The translations under genes and the position numbers were made by a program. A DNA stretch of 53,291 nucleotides, taken from assembly GCA_964352365.1 (NCBI GenBank), contig CAYGRX010000001.1, positions 1 through 53,291 of the forward strand. Reading direction: 5' to 3'. Shown one piece after another: positions 7,925 through 32,479 of the stretch (within the stretch, counting starts at the first letter, position 1; the number at the start of each line of letters is the position of its first letter). The notes beneath the pieces were generated by a model, which saw only the letters and a list, made by a program, of their open reading frames with translations, had not been told where the DNA came from and searched no databases. This DNA comes from an uncultured Rickettsiales bacterium. GTDB lineage: Bacteria; Pseudomonadota; Alphaproteobacteria; Rickettsiales; UBA8987.

Positions 7925-9181
7925 TTGATGTCAAAAGCCCAAAAAATTGCTGTTTTAGATATTGCTAGCAGTAAAGTAGTTTGTGTTATTGCATCAGTAA
8001 ATGGAGATCAAATTCCTAAAATTCTTGGTTTCGGTCATCAGCTTTCAGAAGGTGTTAGAGCAGGAATTATAATCGATATTAAAAAAGCAGAACGTTCTAT
8101 TTTAGCGGCTCTTAACGCAGCAGAAAAAATGGCAGGTGAAACTGTTGATGAGGCTTATATCAACATTTCTGGTGCAACAATAAATTCTAGCCATATTAAT
8201 ATTGAAACAAAAATTTCTGGTCATGAAGTAACATTCAAAGATTTAGATTTAATGCTGAATAATGGCAATGATCTAATTGTTAATGATGAAACTGAAATTA
8301 TTCAGTCAATGCCGCTTGGTTATAAAATTGATGATAGTGAGGGGATAAAAGACCCTATAGGTATGTTTGGTCAGGTAATATCAACTAACCTTCATGTTGT
8401 TACTGCTTCAAAGACTTCAGTTAAAAACATTCGTAACTGTTTGGCGAAATGCCATGTTTCTGTAAAAGGATTTATAGTATCATCTTTTGCCTCTGGTCTT
8501 GCAACTCTTAGTGAGGATGAATCTGAAATTGGTGTAACCATGCTTGATATAGGGGCGGGAAACACGTCGATCGCAATATTTTCTGAAGGTTATCCCGTTT
8601 ATTTTGATTCGATCCCAGTTGGAGGAAACCATATAACTAAAGATATCGCTCTAGGGTTGTCAGTTAGTCAACCATTTGCTGAAAGGTTAAAGGTGATTCA
8701 TGGAAACGCAGTTTCAACGGATAATGATGACCTTGATAATATTGAGATTATGGATGAAGAAGATAACCTCGGATCAGTGAAATCAATTACTAAAGCTGAG
8801 TTAACCTCAATTATAAGGCCAAGGGTTGAAGAGATATTAGAGTTAGCAAAAAATAATTTGGAGAAAAGTGGATTATATTCAATTTCAGGCAATAAAGTAG
8901 TTATAACTGGTGGTTCATCACAGCTTCAAGGTTTGAAAGAGGTGGCAAATTTTACCTTCAATAAACATGCAAAAATCTCTTTTCCTAAAGAAGTTAAAGG
9001 TTTGCCAGAATCAGCTAAGGGGCCAGCTTTTTCAACGGCGATTGGGATGGTTATCCATGTTGCGGAGATAAAATCTAAAAAAGAGGTTAGGGGGAAGTTT
9101 AGTCCAATGGAAATGGTGTCCTCCTCAAATTCTTCAAATAAATCTTTCAGAATCGTTGAATGGTTTAAGAGAAACTTCTAA
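7925..9181 (+). CDS. ftsA: cell division protein FtsA
   Basis: Actin-fold motifs LDIASSKVVCVI, LDIGAGNTSIAIF, VITGGSSQLQGL. The ATG at 7928 is the likely start. Confidence 0.9.
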   Translation: MMSKAQKIAVLDIASSKVVCVIASVNGDQIPKILGFGHQLSEGVRAGIIIDIKKAERSILAALNAAEKMAGETVDEAYINISGATINSSHINIETKISGHEVTFKDLDLMLNNGNDLIVNDETEIIQSMPLGYKIDDSEGIKDPIGMFGQVISTNLHVVTASKTSVKNIRNCLAKCHVSVKGFIVSSFASGLATLSEDESEIGVTMLDIGAGNTSIAIFSEGYPVYFDSIPVGGNHITKDIALGLSVSQPFAERLKVIHGNAVSTDNDDLDNIEIMDEEDNLGSVKSITKAELTSIIRPRVEEILELAKNNLEKSGLYSISGNKVVITGGSSQLQGLKEVANFTFNKHAKISFPKEVKGLPESAKGPAFSTAIGMVIHVAEIKSKKEVRGKFSPMEMVSSSNSSNKSFRIVEWFKRNF

Positions 9182-9190
9182 AAGAAGTAC

Positions 9191-9928
9191 ATGACTAGAT
9201 ATAAACTTAAAATTGAATATGATGGAACTGGCATTCATGGGTGGCAACGCCAAAAAAATGACCTAACTTTGCAGGAAATTTTTGAAGATTCACTCTATAA
9301 ACTTACTAATGAAAAAATTGAAGTTGTTGCAAGTGGTCGAACGGATGCAGGAGTTCATGCGTTTGGACAGGTTGTGCATTTTGATTTGAATAAAGATTGG
9401 GATGAATTTAAAATTCTAACAGGGCTAAATCACCACCTTATTAGAAAATCTATTTCAGTCCTATCCTCAAAAAAGGTATCTGATGATTTTCATTCAAGGT
9501 TTTCAGCTAAAAAAAGATATTATAGATATATCATATTAAATAGAAAATCTCCTTCGCCTCTTTATAGGGGCAGGGCTTGGCACGTTGTAAATAAACTTGA
9601 TACTAAAAAGATGCGTGATGCAGCAAAGTACCTTATTGGTACTCATGACTTTTCAAGTTTTAGAGCATCGGAATGTCAGTCTAAAAACCCTATTAAAACT
9701 TTGGAATCAATAGATATTACTGAAAAGGGAGATCAAATAATTTTTGATATATCAGCCATTTCATTCCTTCACCACCAATGCAGAAACATGGTAGGTACTT
9801 TAAAGGAGGTTGGTGAAGGGAAAATTCACCCAGAGGATATTTCTGCAATAATTGAATCAAAAAGTCGTAGCGAAGCTGGTGTTACTGCTCCAGCTCATGG
9901 GCTATATTTTATGAAGGTTGAATATTAA
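9191..9928 (+). CDS. truA: tRNA pseudouridine(38-40) synthase TruA
   Basis: YDGTGIHGWQRQ, catalytic GRTDAGVHA, FLHHQCRNMVG. Confidence 0.9.
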   Translation: MTRYKLKIEYDGTGIHGWQRQKNDLTLQEIFEDSLYKLTNEKIEVVASGRTDAGVHAFGQVVHFDLNKDWDEFKILTGLNHHLIRKSISVLSSKKVSDDFHSRFSAKKRYYRYIILNRKSPSPLYRGRAWHVVNKLDTKKMRDAAKYLIGTHDFSSFRASECQSKNPIKTLESIDITEKGDQIIFDISAISFLHHQCRNMVGTLKEVGEGKIHPEDISAIIESKSRSEAGVTAPAHGLYFMKVEY

Positions 9929-9931
9929 TAA

Positions 9932-10708
9932 TTAATGATCTTGTAACTTTACCTTTATAGGTCCTTCTGCATTTCCATGTACAAACTGATCAACATATTC
10001 ATTGCCGCTTTTATATATGTTAGCAGGGCTTCCTGTCCATATGAGTTGGCCTTCATAAATCATTGAAATTTTATCCGCGATTTTTGTGGCACTTGCCATA
10101 TCATGCGTGATAGTAACTGCCGTTGCGTTGAGCTCTTTTGTACATTTAACGATCAAATTGTTAATAACATCACTCATGATAGGATCTAGGCCAGTTGTAG
10201 GCTCATCAAAAAATATAATTTCTGGCTCAGTTGCAATTGCTCTAGCCAAGCTTATACGCTTTTGCATTCCACCACTTAGTTCTGCAGGAAATAAATCTGC
10301 AATTTCCTTGTCCATACCAACTTGCATTATTTTTTCTTCAGCGATACTTCTGGCCTTATCCCTGCTCATGCCTTCTGCATATACTAGTCCGAATGCAACA
10401 TTCTCCCAAATTGGCAAACTGTCAAACAGCGCACCACCTTGGAATAAATATCCAAATTTATGCATTATTTCATTCCTGCGTTTACCTGAAAGGTTGGAGG
10501 TCTCCTCGCCGTCAATTTTTATTGATCCACTATCTGGGTTCATAAGCCCAATTATATTTTTGATCAAAACGGATTTACCTGTCCCACTTCCGCCAATTAC
10601 CACTAATGATTCACCAGTGTTAACTTCCATATCTACTCCACGTAAAACATGTTTGTTTCCGAAGCTTTTTTTTACGCTGCTTAGCGCTATTTTAGGGGGC
10701 TTTGACAT
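9932..10708 (-). CDS. ABC transporter ATP-binding protein, MlaF-like; no permease gene adjacent
   Basis: Walker A GGSGTGKS, signature LSGGMQKR, Walker B IIFFDEPTTGLD, C-terminal FVHGNAEGP tail as in Mla-type ATPases. Confidence 0.75.
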   Translation of the reverse strand: MSKPPKIALSSVKKSFGNKHVLRGVDMEVNTGESLVVIGGSGTGKSVLIKNIIGLMNPDSGSIKIDGEETSNLSGKRRNEIMHKFGYLFQGGALFDSLPIWENVAFGLVYAEGMSRDKARSIAEEKIMQVGMDKEIADLFPAELSGGMQKRISLARAIATEPEIIFFDEPTTGLDPIMSDVINNLIVKCTKELNATAVTITHDMASATKIADKISMIYEGQLIWTGSPANIYKSGNEYVDQFVHGNAEGPIKVKLQDH

Positions 10709-10865
10709 ATTAGGTAAAATGTAATATAATTTAAATTCAAGATTTAACTAAATAGTAACTATTCTGTAACAATTTTTTGTTATAGTTAAATATAAGGTAA
10801 GAAAGTAAAATGTTCTATAATTTTATATTTTTATCTTTAAATGAAGGTAAAGAAGGAGCAATACA

Positions 10866-11111
10866 ATGCTTAAGCTAGATAAGGCTATGGGTGAAAGTAT
10901 TTCCGGATCAGGGGTTAATGGAAATGTTCAATGCGGTAAAACAAAAGTAATTCCGAGTGTGAAGGCTGTTCATGAAATCAAGAAAGATGATTTTTCAATG
11001 AAGGTTATGGACCATAATTACTATGTTCAGGAAAGGTGGGAAGATTATGAAGATCGCCATGAAACCTTTATTGAAATGGTCTATAGAAGGATCTCAGACA
11101 TCCTGCACTAG
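10866..11111 (+). CDS. 81-aa hypothetical protein
   Basis: AAGGAG SD 8 nt upstream of the ATG. Converges on lnt and overlaps its 3' end by 44 nt. No family recognised. Confidence 0.35.
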   Translation: MLKLDKAMGESISGSGVNGNVQCGKTKVIPSVKAVHEIKKDDFSMKVMDHNYYVQERWEDYEDRHETFIEMVYRRISDILH

Positions 11112-12633
11112 TTACAAATAATCCTGCTAGTAAAATAGAAATTATATTACCTGATTTTGCAAAAAATGTTTCAAAATGTAAGCTTGAGGGCAATTTTGAG
11201 TCTATAATTCCTCGTTCATTTAAGTTTTTTTGTTTTCTAACTTGCCCTAAGCTATCTATTACTGCAGATATTCCAGTATTAGCAGCTCTTATCACTGGTA
11301 TCCCTTCTTCAATTGCCCTTGCGCGTGAAATATCTAAATGCTGATAGGGGCCTTTCGAAATTCCAAACCAACCATCATTAGTAACATTTAAAATCCATTT
11401 GGGTTTAACCTTACTTTCCTTATTTACAACCTCACTAGGGAAAATTACTTCATAGCAAATTAAGGGAGAAAACGCAGGCGCATTATCTAGCTTTAAAGTT
11501 TGTGGCCCATTACCAACCCCGAAATCTTCTGAGCCGTGAATTTTAGAAATAAATGGAAGGTATTTTTTTAGCGGAACATATTCTCCAAATGGAACTAAGT
11601 GGTGTTTATCATAAAGTTGATCTTCCAATTCACCTTTAGAATTTATTATTTCAATTGAATTATAAAAATTATACTTCTCTTGGTCTTCTGAATCTTCAAA
11701 TCTTACAGTACCTAAAATTAAATATGAACTAAATGGGATTATATCTTTTAATTCCCCAAGCATTTGCGGTGACTTTCTCAAATTATATGGTGTTGCTGCT
11801 TCGGGCCAAATAATAATATCTGGAATGAATCCATCAATTTCACTTTCTGCAAGTGTTAGAGAATAATAATTATATAAATGCTCACCTGCTCTAAGGCGAT
11901 CAAATTTTTCTCTTTGTGAGATATTAGGTTGAACAACTCTAATATCAACATCTTCTTCAGTGCCTTTATATTTTGATAGTCTTTGTTCTCCCCAGTAATT
12001 TATTGTTAGCATCGCCATTAACAATGCAGAAATAAAAAACAAAGAGATTGCACTTTTTCCTACTCTTTTTTCAATGTTTCCGTTGCCATCTTTGATGTAG
12101 TTTTTAACAAAGCTATAAGGAGCGCTATAAATCAGAATGGCAAGTAAGCTCATTCCATAAAACCCTATTACCGAGCCTAGTTGCGCCAACTCAATCCTTT
12201 CAAAAAAAACATACCCCGTTAGATTCCAAGGGAAGCCAGTAAACAAATGTCCTCTTAAAATTTCAGCAAGAGTCCATGATCCCGCGAAAAACATAACTTT
12301 TGATACGCCTTGGTAACTTAGCTTTTTTGTTAGCCAGCAAACTACCGCAATATATATGCTTAGATATGCGGGAATAATGCTTACCGCAAAGGGTATAAGC
12401 CACGCGAATTTATCTGGGTCAACAAGTAGTGAGTTGCTTATCCAATATAGGCCGGTCGTGTGGTGTCCAAAGCCAAATAAAAAACCATATAAAAGCGCTT
12501 TTTTTGCGCTTTTGGCCTTGTGTATAATTAGAAGCAAACCAGATAGGCTAACGAAACCAAGCCAAAACCAATAATATGGAGTTAGACAGAAAGTAAGTAA
12601 AGATCCTAATATAAATGATAAAATTGAAAACAT
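11068..12633 (-). CDS. lnt: apolipoprotein N-acyltransferase
   Basis: N-terminal polytopic membrane domain plus C-terminal CN-hydrolase domain (IIWPEAA, ICYEVIFP, NDGWFG). Confidence 0.85.
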   Translation of the reverse strand: MFSILSFILGSLLTFCLTPYYWFWLGFVSLSGLLLIIHKAKSAKKALLYGFLFGFGHHTTGLYWISNSLLVDPDKFAWLIPFAVSIIPAYLSIYIAVVCWLTKKLSYQGVSKVMFFAGSWTLAEILRGHLFTGFPWNLTGYVFFERIELAQLGSVIGFYGMSLLAILIYSAPYSFVKNYIKDGNGNIEKRVGKSAISLFFISALLMAMLTINYWGEQRLSKYKGTEEDVDIRVVQPNISQREKFDRLRAGEHLYNYYSLTLAESEIDGFIPDIIIWPEAATPYNLRKSPQMLGELKDIIPFSSYLILGTVRFEDSEDQEKYNFYNSIEIINSKGELEDQLYDKHHLVPFGEYVPLKKYLPFISKIHGSEDFGVGNGPQTLKLDNAPAFSPLICYEVIFPSEVVNKESKVKPKWILNVTNDGWFGISKGPYQHLDISRARAIEEGIPVIRAANTGISAVIDSLGQVRKQKNLNERGIIDSKLPSSLHFETFFAKSGNIISILLAGLFVTSAGCLRSFYRPFQ

Positions 12634-26989: not shown

Positions 26990-27044
26990 ATTGGTTGCGG
27001 AGGCTCGCATCGGTGTTTTCTTTCATCGGTTTGAGCTTGCTAAC
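26990..27044 (+). repeat. tRNA-fMet 3'-end-like direct repeat B
   Basis: TTGGTTGCGGAGGCT is identical to the complement of the tRNA-fMet 3' end plus 2 flanking nt. The remainder is ~85% identical to repeat A. Confidence 0.7.
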
Positions 27045-27636
27045 TATTTAGAATAATATTTCTGAAAGTCAAAGAAATTCGTTTTTTACGCTTAATTATT
27101 TGCCCATCAATTTTATCTGTTTTTCTACTTGCTATTCCGTGCTGCCATTTATAACGAGCATCATCTTTCAATATCAGCAAGCTCCTACGTGGTAATAAAA
27201 TTGATATTTTTTGGTTCGTTTCTGAATTTATAAAATCCATCACGCAATCTGAGGCAAGGCTTAAGCTGGCAACTGTTTCTTAAAAGCAAGGAACACAATC
27301 TATATGGCTTGAAATTCCTTGCCCTGACTCATATTCATTTACGATAACTTGATCAGGAAGCTTATTAAAGCAACGTTGCTCTAAAAGTCTTTTTGAGATT
27401 GGTTTTATAAAATCAGGAATATCTCCAACTTTAAAATCTTCTGTTAATTTTCTAGCCTTATAATCATATTTATATCCATAATGCTGAACCCTACGCTTAA
27501 GGTCAGTAAGCCAAGATTGTTTATCTATATTTTGAATTAGTTCTAATTCTTCATCCTCTGAAATAAAAGTATCAACTAAAGTTAAGCCATCTACTAGGTC
27601 TTGGGGTTTGGGTTCAAATTTGGTAAATAAGTTCAT
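27040..27636 (-). pseudogene. AlkB-like Fe(II)/2-oxoglutarate dioxygenase, interrupted by an in-frame TAA
   Basis: N-part ...VIVNEYESGQGISSHIDCVPCF, stop at 27280-27282, then the same frame continues ETVASLSLASDCVMDF...RISLTFR. HxD and the distal R-x-S-x-T-x-R motifs lie on either side of the stop. Confidence 0.75.
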
Positions 27637-28430
27637 AATTTAAATATATAGGTGCAGAAAGAATCATAGTCTTCAATAGCACTTTCATCTTTGTTAGTCA
27701 TACTGTGAATATATTCATGAAAATCATTCGGGTCAAAACTATAAATTTCTGGTTCATTAAAACCTGTTTCTTCAGCGGCTTCATCAAAATGAAAAACAGC
27801 TCTATAATATGAGCTATTAACAGTTGTAATTAAAACCTTTCCATCTTCTTTCAAAACTTGCATTGCACTTTTTAAAAACTCTCTGATAAGAATATAGTTA
27901 GGGTTTCTACCTTCGATTGGTTCTCTACTTCCAACGTTCGGAAATTGAAAAATAATATTATCAAATTTCTTGTTTTCAAAAGTATACTCTAGATTAGTAG
28001 CGTCTACTTCAAATAATATGTTAGCTCCATAGTTTGCTAAGTCTTCTGCATTTAAAATCGTAAGTTCAGAAACTTCATTTTCTGCTTCAAAAACAGTAGC
28101 GGTAATATTTTCGGGAACAATAGAATAATTCTCAACTAGGCTAAGGGCAAAACTGAAATTACCTTCCCCAACTAATAAAGTTTTTCCAAGTCTGACCTCT
28201 GAAACAAAATCAATTTTAGTTAGGCTGCCTTTTAAAAGGAAATTTAGTTTATTATCAATTTCTTTAAGATTTTTGATGTCTTCAAACAAGCCTAGGTTTA
28301 AACTTTTAATTTTTAAATCTGAGTTGAGTTTACTTAACCTATGTATTTCTCTTTGATAATTATTCATATAAAATCCATTTTTAATGAATTTTATATTTAG
28401 AAATTGTAATCGGGAAGTAGAGCTGCGCAA
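27633..28430 (-). CDS. DUF2431 / BMT5-like Rossmann-fold methyltransferase
   Basis: LLVGEGNFSFALSL, ATVFE, EVDATNL, FDNIIFQFPNVG follow the BMT5-like motif order. Its TGA overlaps the AlkB-like ATG (ATGA). The start may be the internal ATG at 28367. Confidence 0.65.
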   Translation of the reverse strand: MRSSTSRLQFLNIKFIKNGFYMNNYQREIHRLSKLNSDLKIKSLNLGLFEDIKNLKEIDNKLNFLLKGSLTKIDFVSEVRLGKTLLVGEGNFSFALSLVENYSIVPENITATVFEAENEVSELTILNAEDLANYGANILFEVDATNLEYTFENKKFDNIIFQFPNVGSREPIEGRNPNYILIREFLKSAMQVLKEDGKVLITTVNSSYYRAVFHFDEAAEETGFNEPEIYSFDPNDFHEYIHSMTNKDESAIEDYDSFCTYIFKL

Positions 28431-28682: not shown

Positions 28683-29909
28683 TTAAATGGTCCAGTTACT
28701 TTCGTAACATTCACGTGCGGCTGCTAAGCTTGCAAGTTTAGCTATCAAGCTTTGAACAGGGCAATCAGAATCGCTTCCAGTTTCTTCTGATTCAAAATTT
28801 ACAAATTCCATACCTTTAGAATTAAGGTTACCAAACTTACTTTGGTTATTATTAAGCCTATAATTGCACCCAACAGGCTGGCTATTAACTAAGTAAACCA
28901 TTGGTTCTGAAGGTTTGCCTTTTGTAACGTCAATTGTTGGGATTCCTTCTTGAATAATGACTTCACTATTTTCTTGTGAATCTTTTGTGTTATTCATTGT
29001 GTGGCGAGCTTTTTTGTTTATTTCTAAAACCTCTTCGCCGCTTTTAACATTCATAATTCCCATTCCATAAGTTCCACTGTTAGCCTTAATGAAAACATAT
29101 GGTTCTTCTTCTATGCCATACTCATTATACTTATTTTGGATTTTCCAGATGAGTTTATCAACATTTGTTGCAATACACTCTAAGCCTTCCCGTTGCTTAA
29201 AATTAACTTTTCCACATTTTGTATGCTCCGCAGAAATCAGCCATGGATCAAGGTTAAACTCTCTGCCGAACTCTCTAGCAATATTTGCGTAAGTGTCAAA
29301 GTGGCTAGATTTTCTTCTGATATACCAACCCATTCCGACTGGTGGAAAGATAGGCTGGTCTTCAACCTTTTTTAAAATTTCGGGAGAGCCTGCCGAAAAA
29401 TCATTATTAGCTACAATCATGTCAGGTACAAAATCTTTAGTTCTCACTTTACCACCTTCATTAATAGCTTTGAAAGTTTCTATAGTTTTGCCAGTTGCAG
29501 TTTCAAAAATTTCACTTTCTGATTCTAAATCATGTCTGGCAACAACTACCTCAAGACCTGCATTTTTTAAAATTTCTACAATGTTATATACGTTTTCAAG
29601 GTAAAATTTATTTCTGGTATGACTTTCAGGGTAAACCATTACCTTGTTTTTACCTGAATAATATTTTTCTATATATTTTTTTGCTTGTTCGCTTGCAGTG
29701 GCTTTTTGTTTTTCAGAAAGAAGATTAAAACCTGCTGGAAACAAGTTAGTGTCAACGGGAACTATTTTATAGCCAGAATGCCTGATATCAACGGAAGAAT
29801 AGAATAGGGTGGGGGTTTTGCCATATTTATCTTCTATCCACCTGTTGATTTGTGGGGAGTTCTCTTTAATAATGGAATAAATCTCCTTTTTAATATTTAT
29901 ACTGTTCAT
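28683..29909 (-). CDS. gshA: glutamate--cysteine ligase, T. ferrooxidans-type (GshA, TIGR02049-like)
   Basis: N-terminal FYSSVDIRHSGYKIVPVDTNLFPAGFNLL block characteristic of this GCL lineage (recalled from memory). Operon context with gshB. Confidence 0.65.
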   Translation of the reverse strand: MNSINIKKEIYSIIKENSPQINRWIEDKYGKTPTLFYSSVDIRHSGYKIVPVDTNLFPAGFNLLSEKQKATASEQAKKYIEKYYSGKNKVMVYPESHTRNKFYLENVYNIVEILKNAGLEVVVARHDLESESEIFETATGKTIETFKAINEGGKVRTKDFVPDMIVANNDFSAGSPEILKKVEDQPIFPPVGMGWYIRRKSSHFDTYANIAREFGREFNLDPWLISAEHTKCGKVNFKQREGLECIATNVDKLIWKIQNKYNEYGIEEEPYVFIKANSGTYGMGIMNVKSGEEVLEINKKARHTMNNTKDSQENSEVIIQEGIPTIDVTKGKPSEPMVYLVNSQPVGCNYRLNNNQSKFGNLNSKGMEFVNFESEETGSDSDCPVQSLIAKLASLAAARECYESNWTI

Positions 29910-30733
29910 ACTTCTAAAAACTCATCAAATTCATCTTTTACAATTAAATATCCTCTATAACCGTCTTCACTTTCAGTGTTCATTGCATGATATATATGCT
30001 TTGTGGGGACCCAAAACCAAGGATTCTTAAACCCAGCGGAATCAAGTATCAATACCTCATCCTGCTTTTCATTATATGCACCAATAGTAGAGAAATGGCC
30101 ACCTGTTTTTAGCCCGCAAGTTGTACCATCAAAGTTGGCTATAATAAGTTCGCTATTACCAGAAAGAACACGTTTTAAATCTGCTCTAAATTTATCAAGG
30201 TTATCATCAATATCCTTATCGCATATATGGGCTTCAACTTCAACAAAGTGATATTCAAGAATATCTATAACGTTATATATGCTAATTCCTGGGTTGAAGT
30301 TTTCCTCAGTAATTTCTTCTTTAGAAAAACATGGTGCTATTTTCTCTATAGGTTTTATTTTTTCAGTTTCTTTATCTAAAATATTCAATTGGGTGTAGTA
30401 CCTATATTCAACTATTGTTCCATCTGGTTTAGTTATACAAATATCTTCTTGGTTTGGTATAAACCCTTTTTTTGCTCTAAAAGTATTTAATACAGTTGTA
30501 ACAGTAGCAACTCCGCAAAAGAATGGGTTAATTTGCGCCACGTAATTATGAGCAAGATTAAAAAATGAAACTTTGTGATCAGACTCTCTAAATAGGTTTA
30601 ATCCTTCTTCACTATTCCAGTCAGTAATAACAACTTTTTTGCGGACTGACTTTTTTGCAATATTATATTTGCCATATGCAACTTTGAGTGACAAATATTC
30701 TTTTAATTTTTCTGATTTTCTATGCTTAGGCAT
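29906..30733 (-). CDS. phytochelatin-synthase-like papain-fold protein (bacterial half-PCS, NsPCS-like)
   Basis: Catalytic Cys in INPFFCGVATVTTVLN; His and Asp 18 residues apart in GGHFSTIGAYNEKQDEVLILD, as in PCS. 4-nt overlap with gshA. Confidence 0.8.
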   Translation of the reverse strand: MPKHRKSEKLKEYLSLKVAYGKYNIAKKSVRKKVVITDWNSEEGLNLFRESDHKVSFFNLAHNYVAQINPFFCGVATVTTVLNTFRAKKGFIPNQEDICITKPDGTIVEYRYYTQLNILDKETEKIKPIEKIAPCFSKEEITEENFNPGISIYNVIDILEYHFVEVEAHICDKDIDDNLDKFRADLKRVLSGNSELIIANFDGTTCGLKTGGHFSTIGAYNEKQDEVLILDSAGFKNPWFWVPTKHIYHAMNTESEDGYRGYLIVKDEFDEFLEV

Positions 30734-30737
30734 TTTA

Positions 30738-31691
30738 TTAAATTTTAGGCTTATAACTATTTTTTGAGTGGATTTCTTCTAGCTTATCCCAAAGTAATTT
30801 TTCTGATTCTATTTTATATAGTTTGTTAATTCCTGAAAAACCTGCTGGGCAAGTCACATTAATTTCAGTTAGATAGTCTCCTATAACATCTAAACCACAT
30901 ATAATTATTCCGTCCCTCTGCAATAAAGGTTTTAGTTCTGCACAAATTTCTTTTTCTCTATCTGTCATTTTATGAGCTGCCAAAGTTCCGCCTTGCGCTA
31001 TAGCAGCTTGTAGTTGTCCCTCTGGAGGGATTCTGTTATATGCTCCAATAACTTCTCCATCAATAAGGAAAATTCTTTTATCACCTTGCCTTATTTCAGG
31101 AATATATTTTTGCGCAATTATAGGTTCATTATATTTTTCTTTCATAAGCTGAAATATGCTTTTGAAATTTTCAGTTTTCTTATTAATCCTAAAAACACTT
31201 CTGCCTGCAAACTCATATAATGGTTTTAAAATAATATCATCATGCTTATCCCAAAAATCTTTAATAACACTAGCATTTGATGTTATAATTGTTTCAGGCA
31301 TAAACTTAGCTAAAGCCTTTGGTATGAACTTTTCAGGGTAGCTAACAACAGATATTGGGTCATTAACAACAAGGCTAGTTTCCCTAGCATAATTTAACAT
31401 ATGCATTGCCGTAAAATATCTTGAGTCAAAAGGAGGGTTAAGTCTAATGTTAACAACTGCATTGTCACAAACATTAACTCTTACACGCTCTTCATTTTCT
31501 GCCAGCTCGCCGTTATCTCTAATGAAAACTTTATGAGCATTTGCAAATAAATCACCGTTTTCAAATATTAATTCTTCTGGTCTGCATGCAAATGTAGGAT
31601 ATCTCCTTACTGATTCCGCAATCAGTAAGTTGGTGTCACCCTTATCTGGATAAGGTATTTTTTCAGTGAGTATTAAACTATGATTGAACAA
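30738..31691 (-). CDS. gshB: glutathione synthetase (prokaryotic ATP-grasp type)
   Basis: GDKRIFLIDGEVIGAYNRIP, IAQGGT, CGLDVIGDYLTEINVTCPAG. Confidence 0.85.
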   Translation of the reverse strand: MFNHSLILTEKIPYPDKGDTNLLIAESVRRYPTFACRPEELIFENGDLFANAHKVFIRDNGELAENEERVRVNVCDNAVVNIRLNPPFDSRYFTAMHMLNYARETSLVVNDPISVVSYPEKFIPKALAKFMPETIITSNASVIKDFWDKHDDIILKPLYEFAGRSVFRINKKTENFKSIFQLMKEKYNEPIIAQKYIPEIRQGDKRIFLIDGEVIGAYNRIPPEGQLQAAIAQGGTLAAHKMTDREKEICAELKPLLQRDGIIICGLDVIGDYLTEINVTCPAGFSGINKLYKIESEKLLWDKLEEIHSKNSYKPKI

Positions 31692-31705: not shown

Positions 31706-32479
31706 CTAGTTGTTATTTATAGCATTAAGATCTTCAAATATAACCCCTTCAGGTGCTTCATATTGAAACCCTTTAAGCTCATTATCTTCTTCAACTGAGA
31801 TTATATTTCCTTGTGCATCAACATAAACAATTTCCTTAACTCGGTCAATTTTGTTGTTATATACTTCAACTTCAATATCCACACGTCTATCAGCCTGTAA
31901 GCATGCAATTTGCTGTTTCTTAGGCAGCGTAGTAGGGCAGTTTGTTACTGGTCTATTTTCCCCCATGAAACCAAAGTCAACCTGTTCAGTTATAAAGTAA
32001 CCTCTGGACTGAAGGTAAGTTAAGGCATTTTTTGCTCTGTTTCTTGAAAGGTTAACGTTATATTCATCGCCTGCATACCTATCTGCATAACCAACTAAAC
32101 GAACTGCTTTAACACCGTCAGATTTTTGAATTTCAGAAATAACTTCATCCATCCTAGCTCTGTCATCCGAGTCAATATTATGTCTATCAATTTCAAAGTA
32201 GATAGATTGTCTGATTAGATCTACATAAGTAACCATTTTTTCTCTTTCAACATATTTTGCAACTGGTTCAACTGGTTTTGGTGCAGGAGCCTCTGGGAGT
32301 TCAAATCCACAAGGGTCACAACATTGATCAGCAACCCAACGTGAACGAACGCAGTTACCTTTTTTATCTACGACCACAGTATGCTTTTTGTTTACAACTG
32401 GGTAAACAGATTTAGCAACGGCTATGTTAGAAACCATTAATAATGCGGTCAAAATAGATAAAATAACTGTTTTCTTCAT
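31706..32479 (-). CDS. OmpA-family peptidoglycan-binding protein with Cys-rich, Pro-rich N-terminal part
   Basis: Signal peptide; C-terminal OmpA_C-like domain (VRLVGYADRYAGDEYNVNLSRNRAKNALTYL...DRRVDIEV). Confidence 0.8.
   Translation of the reverse strand: MKKTVILSILTALLMVSNIAVAKSVYPVVNKKHTVVVDKKGNCVRSRWVADQCCDPCGFELPEAPAPKPVEPVAKYVEREKMVTYVDLIRQSIYFEIDRHNIDSDDRARMDEVISEIQKSDGVKAVRLVGYADRYAGDEYNVNLSRNRAKNALTYLQSRGYFITEQVDFGFMGENRPVTNCPTTLPKKQQIACLQADRRVDIEVEVYNNKIDRVKEIVYVDAQGNIISVEEDNELKGFQYEAPEGVIFEDLNAINNN

Follow-up and report, generated by a model that had tools for sequence, protein, structure and literature searches.

Why should a gene resembling phytochelatin synthase (PCS) lie between the two genes of glutathione (GSH) biosynthesis in a bacterium of the order Rickettsiales? 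The question is raised by a 53,291-nucleotide (nt) stretch of DNA from an uncultured member of this order (GenBank assembly GCA_964352365.1, contig CAYGRX010000001.1, positions 1 to 53,291; GTDB lineage UBA8987), referred to below as the window, whose minus strand carries gshB, a gene for a half-size PCS-like cysteine peptidase and gshA in close succession. The physiological role of half-size PCS-like proteins has reportedly been open since the characterization of Alr0975 in 2004-2005, and the bacterial genes for them nearly always stand alone, so that their genomic context has been uninformative on function. In the present case, the gene sits at a fixed place, flanked by the only two GSH-biosynthetic genes, its product appears to be cytoplasmic and neither GGT nor ChaC was found in the genome, and the context therefore hints at function. 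The reading favoured here, with a probability of roughly 0.5, is that the PCS-like enzyme would serve as a cytoplasmic deglycinase of GSH or of GSH conjugates within a housekeeping GSH operon. The enzymes themselves are of known kinds; the novelty lies in their arrangement, in its conservation within a clade and in the assignment of the PCS-like gene to a large, uncharacterized subfamily.

A COMPACT THREE-GENE LOCUS

The locus comprises the following features:

30738-31691, minus strand: gshB, 317 amino acids, TTG start; ATP-grasp glutathione synthetase
30734-30737, minus strand: 4-nt spacer, TAAA, between the gshB stop codon and the start of the PCS-like gene, read from the sequence
29906-30733, minus strand: PCS-like gene, 275 amino acids; half-size phytochelatin-synthase-like cysteine peptidase
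29906-29909, minus strand: ATGA overlap, in which the TGA stop codon of the PCS-like gene overlaps with the ATG start codon of gshA
28683-29909, minus strand: gshA, 408 amino acids; glutamate-cysteine ligase of the PF08886/TIGR02049 type

The tight coupling of the three genes that the original prediction had described is evident from both the open reading frames (ORFs) and the sequence, with the TAA stop codon of gshB (30738-30740) followed by TAAA and then directly by the ATG of the PCS-like gene. All three genes lie on one strand, the gaps between them are too short for promoters and their order is kept in other lineages, as expected of an operon, and gshB, the PCS-like gene and gshA are thus probably co-transcribed. 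A consensus scan for sigma-70 promoters and intrinsic terminators was uninformative, since it returned the same counts as shuffled sequence.

The identities that had been proposed for the three genes are borne out by Pfam and NCBIfam matches. The gshB product contains both the ATP-grasp domain (PF02955, 201 bits) and the N-terminal domain (PF02951); it scores 300 bits against NF003573 (cut-off 272) and 284.7 bits against TIGR01380, slightly under the cut-off of 299, and it is the sole strong match of its kind in the genome. The gshA product, likewise encoded by a single copy, scores 462.7 bits against PF08886 and 422 bits against TIGR02049 ('gshA_ferroox'; cut-off 293.9), spanning profile positions 4-400 of 403. 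This type of ligase had been called uncommon, a description that does not hold locally, as 55 of 61 genomes from the order carry the PF08886 gshA.

THE MIDDLE PROTEIN AS A MEMBER OF THE NsPCS FAMILY

Fold and sequence both confirm the half-size nature of the middle protein and its likeness to NsPCS, the Alr0975 protein. Its match to PF05023 reaches 128.4 bits against a cut-off of 24.9 and covers profile positions 11-210 of 210, and a phmmer search of the PDB finds only Alr0975 (E=4e-20). An AlphaFold (AF2) model built on 22 homologues has a mean predicted local-distance difference test score (pLDDT) of 90.7, and when this model is compared with the PDB by Foldseek, Alr0975 takes all of the nine top places (E 6e-20 to 4e-18; target template-modelling scores 0.84-0.88). 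A better alignment to another papain-fold family, which would have undercut the assignment, was not found; Alr0975, at E ~1e-19, stands about 14 orders of magnitude ahead of the next family (E 4e-6), and Peptidase_C39_2, at 19 bits, falls below its own cut-off.

The intact Cys/His-N18-Asp triad noted at the outset is upheld by alignment with NsPCS, its three residues being encoded as follows:

30515-30517, minus strand: codon TGC for catalytic Cys73, in the motif AQINPFFCG; aligns with NsPCS Cys70
30095-30097, minus strand: codon CAT for catalytic His213, in the motif TGGHFS; aligns with NsPCS His183
30041-30043, minus strand: codon GAT for catalytic Asp231, in the motif ILDSAGFKNPW; aligns with NsPCS Asp201

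The spacing of 18 from His to Asp is that of His183 and Asp201 in NsPCS, and the oxyanion Gln67 is present as well, in alignment with NsPCS Gln64. Across the family, the catalytic Cys is kept in 113 of 124 aligned representatives, while the catalytic His and Asp are invariant in an alignment of 22 relatives. Lys236 and Arg260, which align with NsPCS Lys206 and Arg232, are also retained; the latter is a residue that we take, from the Alr0975 structure, to aid recognition of the gamma-glutamyl group. The protein ends about 10 residues past the catalytic domain and so lacks the C-terminal Cys-rich metal-sensing domain. Its N-terminus is basic and without a hydrophobic stretch, the maximal hydropathy over 15-residue windows of the first 60 residues being 0.2, as against 2.17 on the same measure in a secreted homologue. 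No signal peptide is thus apparent from the hydropathy of the N-terminus, and the protein should be cytoplasmic.

A REMODELLED ACCEPTOR POCKET

The second-substrate cavity of NsPCS has Gln64, Arg173, Lys206 and Tyr207 as its lining residues, which correspond to Gln50, Arg152, Lys185 and Tyr186 of AtPCS1 (PMC3855540). The importance of this cavity is indicated by the AtPCS1 mutants, among which R152K keeps 0.01 % of activity and those of Gln157 and Tyr186 are impaired, and Lys185 has been proposed to bind the second substrate (PMC3855540). Of the four NsPCS lining residues, just the Gln and the Lys are retained in the PCS-like protein. Relative to NsPCS, Arg173 is replaced by Gly203, Gln178 by Leu208, Arg180 by Thr210 and Tyr207 by Asn237; hence, at the positions equivalent to Arg152, Gln157, Lys185 and Tyr186 of AtPCS1, the protein has Gly203, Leu208, Lys236 and Asn237, with Lys alone kept. 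The production of short phytochelatins, one of the outcomes first suggested for this operon, is therefore disfavoured, as three acceptor-cavity residues important in AtPCS1 (PMC3855540) have been replaced. Further, NsPCS Asp225 aligns with Ser255, the acidic residues being displaced to positions 254, 256 and 257 (Glu254, Glu256 and Asp257).

Some of these replacements recur within the family, which comprises roughly 2,200 clusters. Gly at the position of NsPCS residue 173 is found in 41 of 124 aligned representatives, typically together with T180 and H205-K206-N207, the classical Arg173 being found in 63 of 124, and no characterized member of the Gly173 group was found. Thus delineated is a large, uncharacterized subfamily of PCS-like proteins with a remodelled acceptor pocket, and the protein described here is, judging from its residues, of the cytoplasmic 'YG-motif' type of this G173/HKNPW-like subfamily. 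In addition, it is of the 'N-type', its Asn lying four residues before the catalytic Cys (AQINPFFC). The 'N' isoforms have been proposed to serve GSH metabolism rather than polymerization (PMC11314372), and NsPCS itself is described as removing Gly from GSH rapidly and as making PC2 very weakly, in traces (PMC3855540, PMC11314372).

DISTRIBUTION AND ORIGIN OF THE ARRANGEMENT

Whether the linkage is confined to this genome, as a sceptic of the original prediction might have held, is answered by three metagenome contigs, representing two further lineages, which also carry the order gshB-PCS-gshA. The contigs of one lineage (L003/L004) have OmpA-gshB-PCS-gshA and that of the other (L005) has gshB-PCS-gshA, with gaps of 20-122 nt within the gene blocks. 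On these contigs lie the two closest homologues of the PCS-like protein, with 56 % and 55 % identity.

The proposed survey of neighbourhoods thus gave a divided answer, in that the linkage exists in a narrow clade and fails as a general property of bacterial PCS-like genes. Neither gshB nor a PF08886 gshA was found near any of about 66 other PCS-like loci, the screen of flanks having covered these two genes, with E. coli-type and GCS2-type gshA unscreened. The set was made up of 17 loci in the order with 1.5-kb flanks, two metagenome loci (L006 and L007), 19 loci from GTDB genomes with 6-kb flanks (the genomes partly overlapping the order set), 14 further metagenome loci and 14 class-wide loci with 5-kb flanks. 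The stand-alone genes neighbour housekeeping genes such as hemC, a hemD-like gene, tsaD and tolB, with sporadic Dps and integrase genes; a functional theme common to these neighbours was considered and rejected in favour of housekeeping synteny. As to precedent, full-text literature searches gave no report of a PCS-like gene between gshA and gshB, in keeping with the claim that the arrangement is undescribed, nor did they find a paper pairing phytochelatin synthase with Rickettsiales.

The origin of the arrangement can be approached through sister genera belonging to one and the same family (G015, G016 and G017), in which the OmpA-gshB-gshA cluster is without a PCS gene and the gap between gshB and gshA measures only 8-31 nt. 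Because these genera have the cluster without PCS, the PCS gene was most simply added to an existing OmpA-gshB-gshA cluster. In the gshA tree, the three lineages with the PCS operon and these sister genera fall within one clade of eight (support 100/98); monophyly of the three PCS-operon lineages was not recovered, yet the test does not reject it (p-AU 0.24). The PCS tree unites the three operon proteins in a 100/99 clade, which joins cytoplasmic PCS proteins of other families in the order (94/85, a node not starred) rather than the PCS lineage of its own family. Recent horizontal import was rejected, because the GC content of the PCS gene and its GC content at third codon positions equal those of the neighbouring genes. 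The simplest reading of these patterns would be one old insertion of the PCS gene into an existing gshB-gshA operon, kept since; alternatively, though less simply, the gene may have been present ancestrally and undergone two clean losses.

THE LOCUS IN ITS GENOMIC SETTING

Upstream of gshB, the tight same-strand string continues with the gene that heads the conserved block and, further up, with rimI and mfd. The first of these is:

31706-32479, minus strand: OmpA-family gene, PF00691 48.8 bits; peptidoglycan-binding

Its end is separated from gshB by 14 nt, and an OmpA homologue also precedes gshB in L003, L060 (G016) and L065 (G015), the linkage to gshB thus being kept across several genera. 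In the OmpA-family protein, the OmpA_C domain is preceded by a signal peptide and by a stretch rich in Cys (CVRSRWVADQCCDPCGF). No metal-resistance or exporter gene is present in the block. After gshA comes a tRNA-Met gene. Elsewhere in the window, an AlkB-like 2-oxoglutarate- and Fe(II)-dependent oxygenase gene (27040-27636, minus strand) is split into two ORFs of 118 and 67 amino acids, matching profile positions 51-114 and 141-194, as fits a pseudogene; immediately upstream of it is a BMT5-like methyltransferase gene (27633-28430). Regulation by CtrA has been reported for gshA and gshB of Ehrlichia (PMC9005958). It was rejected for this operon, near which no TTAA-N7-TTAA site occurs; the 12 sites across the window compare with 10.8 expected by chance.

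The draft genome, at 94.65 % completeness, amounts to 1.88 Mb in 271 contigs with about 33 % GC. It has two glutathione S-transferase-like genes, and neither GGT (gamma-glutamyltranspeptidase, PF01019) nor ChaC (PF04752) was found in it. No match to the ATP/ADP translocase, a marker of intracellular life, was obtained, a result to be read with the fact that control genomes gave none either. The genome also encodes a second PCS-like paralogue (G000:C65:3848-4567, minus strand, the same as L002:1477-2376), divergent from rpsM-rpsK-rpoA, which has Ala at the position of the catalytic Cys (SPFHASLAC) and keeps the His and Asp. Homologues in four family members (L015, L016, L017 and L019), with Gly or Ser in place of the Cys, join this paralogue in a 100/100 clade, whose sequences suggest a conserved lineage of pseudo-enzymes or of enzymes with an altered nucleophile.

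At the level of the order, the PCS-like family is about nine times commoner in these small-genome Alphaproteobacteria than across the class, with PF05023 in 18 of 60 further genomes from the order vs 14 of 400 class-wide. The order holds two classes of PCS-like protein; one carries a signal peptide, and the other is cytoplasmic and has a YG motif as well as a basic N-terminal extension. Within the order, ChaC was found in none of 61 genomes and GGT is intact in nine and broken in one. None of the 11 genomes with a cytoplasmic YG-type PCS (G000, G001, G002, G006, G007, G013, G015, G023, G026, G033 and G059) has an intact GGT, and the signal-peptide types (G020, G038, G045, G054 and G058) are all in GGT-positive genomes. 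A gshA gene accompanies PCS in every one of the 18 PCS-positive genomes of the order, and no PCS gene is present in the six genomes that lack gshA. The complementarity with GGT and the co-occurrence with gshA fit a GSH-linked role.

Several loci in related genomes touch on the same genes. In G001, of the same family, the GGT gene is in three pieces, one with an internal TAG (G001:C18:13006-14560), and is probably a pseudogene; that genome also carries a cytoplasmic, Cys-intact PCS-like gene (L018). In G038 (G038:C21:9010-12077, covered in part by L077), two minus-strand genes adjoin each other, ggt (10539-12077) being the immediate upstream neighbour of gshA (9010-10194). Finally, the PCS-like match of G060 (G060:C14:80-779; L024/L027) is in two pieces with an in-frame TAG and is probably broken.

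WHAT THE PCS-LIKE ENZYME MAY DO

Under the favoured reading, GshA would make gamma-Glu-Cys and GshB would add Gly, and the PCS-like enzyme would then attack the Cys-Gly bond, either in GSH itself or, as is more plausible, in S-substituted forms of it such as conjugates and metal thiolates. Gly would be released as a gamma-Glu-Cys thioester forms on Cys73, as in NsPCS. Because Gly203, Leu208 and Asn237 have replaced three residues of the acceptor cavity, the acyl group should go mainly to water, giving gamma-Glu-Cys or gamma-Glu-Cys-S-X rather than phytochelatin chains. The position of the PCS gene within the gsh operon would couple a GSH-consuming turnover or detoxification to the resupply of GSH. 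Several considerations weigh against this scheme. An ungated cytoplasmic GSH deglycinase beside GshB would amount to an ATP-wasting cycle; gating by substrate must therefore be assumed, and it is for this reason that S-substituted GSH appears the likelier substrate. The acceptor cavity was probed by mutation in AtPCS1, with phytochelatin synthesis as the only readout, and a remodelled pocket could still take GSH or another amine. With Asp225 replaced by Ser255, recognition of the donor may differ from that in NsPCS. An enzyme that recovers Cys from gamma-Glu-Cys is not among the genes identified, and the GGT and gshA patterns come from related genomes and carry weak statistics (for gshA, hypergeometric p ~0.11).

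Three other explanations have to be set beside the deglycinase. The operon might be a genuine phytochelatin operon, the enzyme transpeptidating gamma-Glu-Cys onto GSH to give PC2-PCn for the sequestration of metals or metalloids and being activated, as in plants, by thiol-blocked GSH. The gene order would then follow the logic of the pathway, with the precursor genes flanking the consuming enzyme, and gating by blocked thiols would lift the problem of the futile cycle; the catalytic machinery and Lys236 (AtPCS1 Lys185) are conserved, the N-terminal domain of AtPCS1 makes phytochelatins by itself (PMC11314372) and a cyanobacterial PCS is reported to be functionally closer to the eukaryotic enzymes than once thought (PMC7411734). 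It is nevertheless unlikely, given that Arg173, Gln178 and Tyr207 have become Gly, Leu and Asn, when R152K kills the activity of AtPCS1 (PMC3855540), that the characterized member of the 'N-type' half-size class, NsPCS, yields only traces of PC2 and that the block is without a metal-resistance or exporter gene. Those same replacements could instead mean that the pocket passes gamma-Glu-Cys to another acceptor, such as an amine or an amino acid, to form an undescribed GSH-derived low-molecular-weight thiol. Consistent with this, the G173/T180/H205-K206-N207 subfamily, which accounts for 41 of the 124 top family clusters and has no characterized member that we found, keeps the acyl-enzyme machinery and not the classical acceptor site, and the gene has been kept within a GSH operon over deep divergence. 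Yet a new acceptor is read purely from residue replacement, no further biosynthetic or export gene is linked and most members of the subfamily stand alone beside housekeeping genes, all of which makes this proposal quite improbable.

The position of the gene might also be incidental, the PCS gene having merely landed in a permissive intergenic site and its product acting on a substrate unrelated to the cell's own GSH pool, e.g. a protein or peptide, or host glutathione if it were a secreted effector. The roughly 66 PCS-like loci with housekeeping neighbours and no gsh linkage would accord with such a view, as would the Cys-less paralogue clade, which shows that the family can adopt non-catalytic roles. 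An insertion that three lineages, at about 55 % identity, have kept with no catalytic residue lost is hard to square with mere accident, however; Arg260, aligned with NsPCS Arg232, is retained, a signal peptide is lacking and every PCS-positive genome of the order has gshA, so that an incidental position seems rather improbable. A broader and tentative idea, doubtful at present, is that the G173/HKNPW-type proteins might form a new functional branch that uses freshly made GSH as a gamma-Glu-Cys donor for phytochelatin-like oligomers or for a new acceptor. If true, the locus would be the first natural bacterial operon to encode every step that leads from amino acids to a secondary thiol derived from GSH. 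Between the deglycinase that we favour and its competitors, the locus offers its own means of decision, for the compact three-gene unit is expressible as it is and could tell the turnover of GSH or its conjugates from the building of thiol peptides.

COMPARISON WITH KNOWN SYSTEMS

The nearest characterized relative is NsPCS/Alr0975 of Nostoc sp. PCC 7120, the 'primitive' half-size PCS (PDB 2BTW, 2BU3, 6TH5, 6THO and 6TJL), with which the protein shares PF05023, the fold, the triad with its 18-residue His-Asp spacing, the oxyanion Gln, the Asn at -4, the equivalents of Lys206 and Arg232 and the absence of a C-terminal Cys-rich domain. The differences are nonetheless considerable. Identity is about 27 %; Alr0975 and several relatives have a signal peptide, whereas the PCS-like protein is extended at its N-terminus by a basic segment with a conserved YG motif; Arg173, Gln178, Arg180 and Tyr207 are exchanged for Gly, Leu, Thr and Asn, and Asp225 aligns with Ser; and the gene here is encoded within a gshB-gshA operon. 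With AtPCS1, the protein has in common a homologous catalytic N-terminal domain, and its reaction with GSH probably passes through the same gamma-Glu-Cys acyl-enzyme. Unlike AtPCS1, it has no C-terminal metal-sensing domain and neither Thr49 nor Glu52, and the equivalents of Arg152, Gln157 and Tyr186 are substituted, on account of which a polymerase activity is doubtful.

In terms of proposed niche, i.e. the turnover of GSH or of its conjugates, the closest parallels are GGT and ChaC, and the ggt-gshA pair of G038 is an analogous pairing of synthesis with degradation. GGT is a periplasmic enzyme. The folds of GGT and ChaC are unrelated to that of the PCS-like protein, and they cut the gamma-Glu-Cys bond, whereas the PCS-like enzyme would, by analogy with its relatives, cut the Cys-Gly bond. 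Lastly, the gshB-gshA clusters with a ligase of the PF08886/TIGR02049 (Acidithiobacillus ferrooxidans) type share with the present locus their flanking genes and their order, as in the OmpA-gshB-gshA of G015-G017, and what sets the present locus apart from them is that the gene for an enzyme of a GSH-cleaving type lies between the two synthetic genes.

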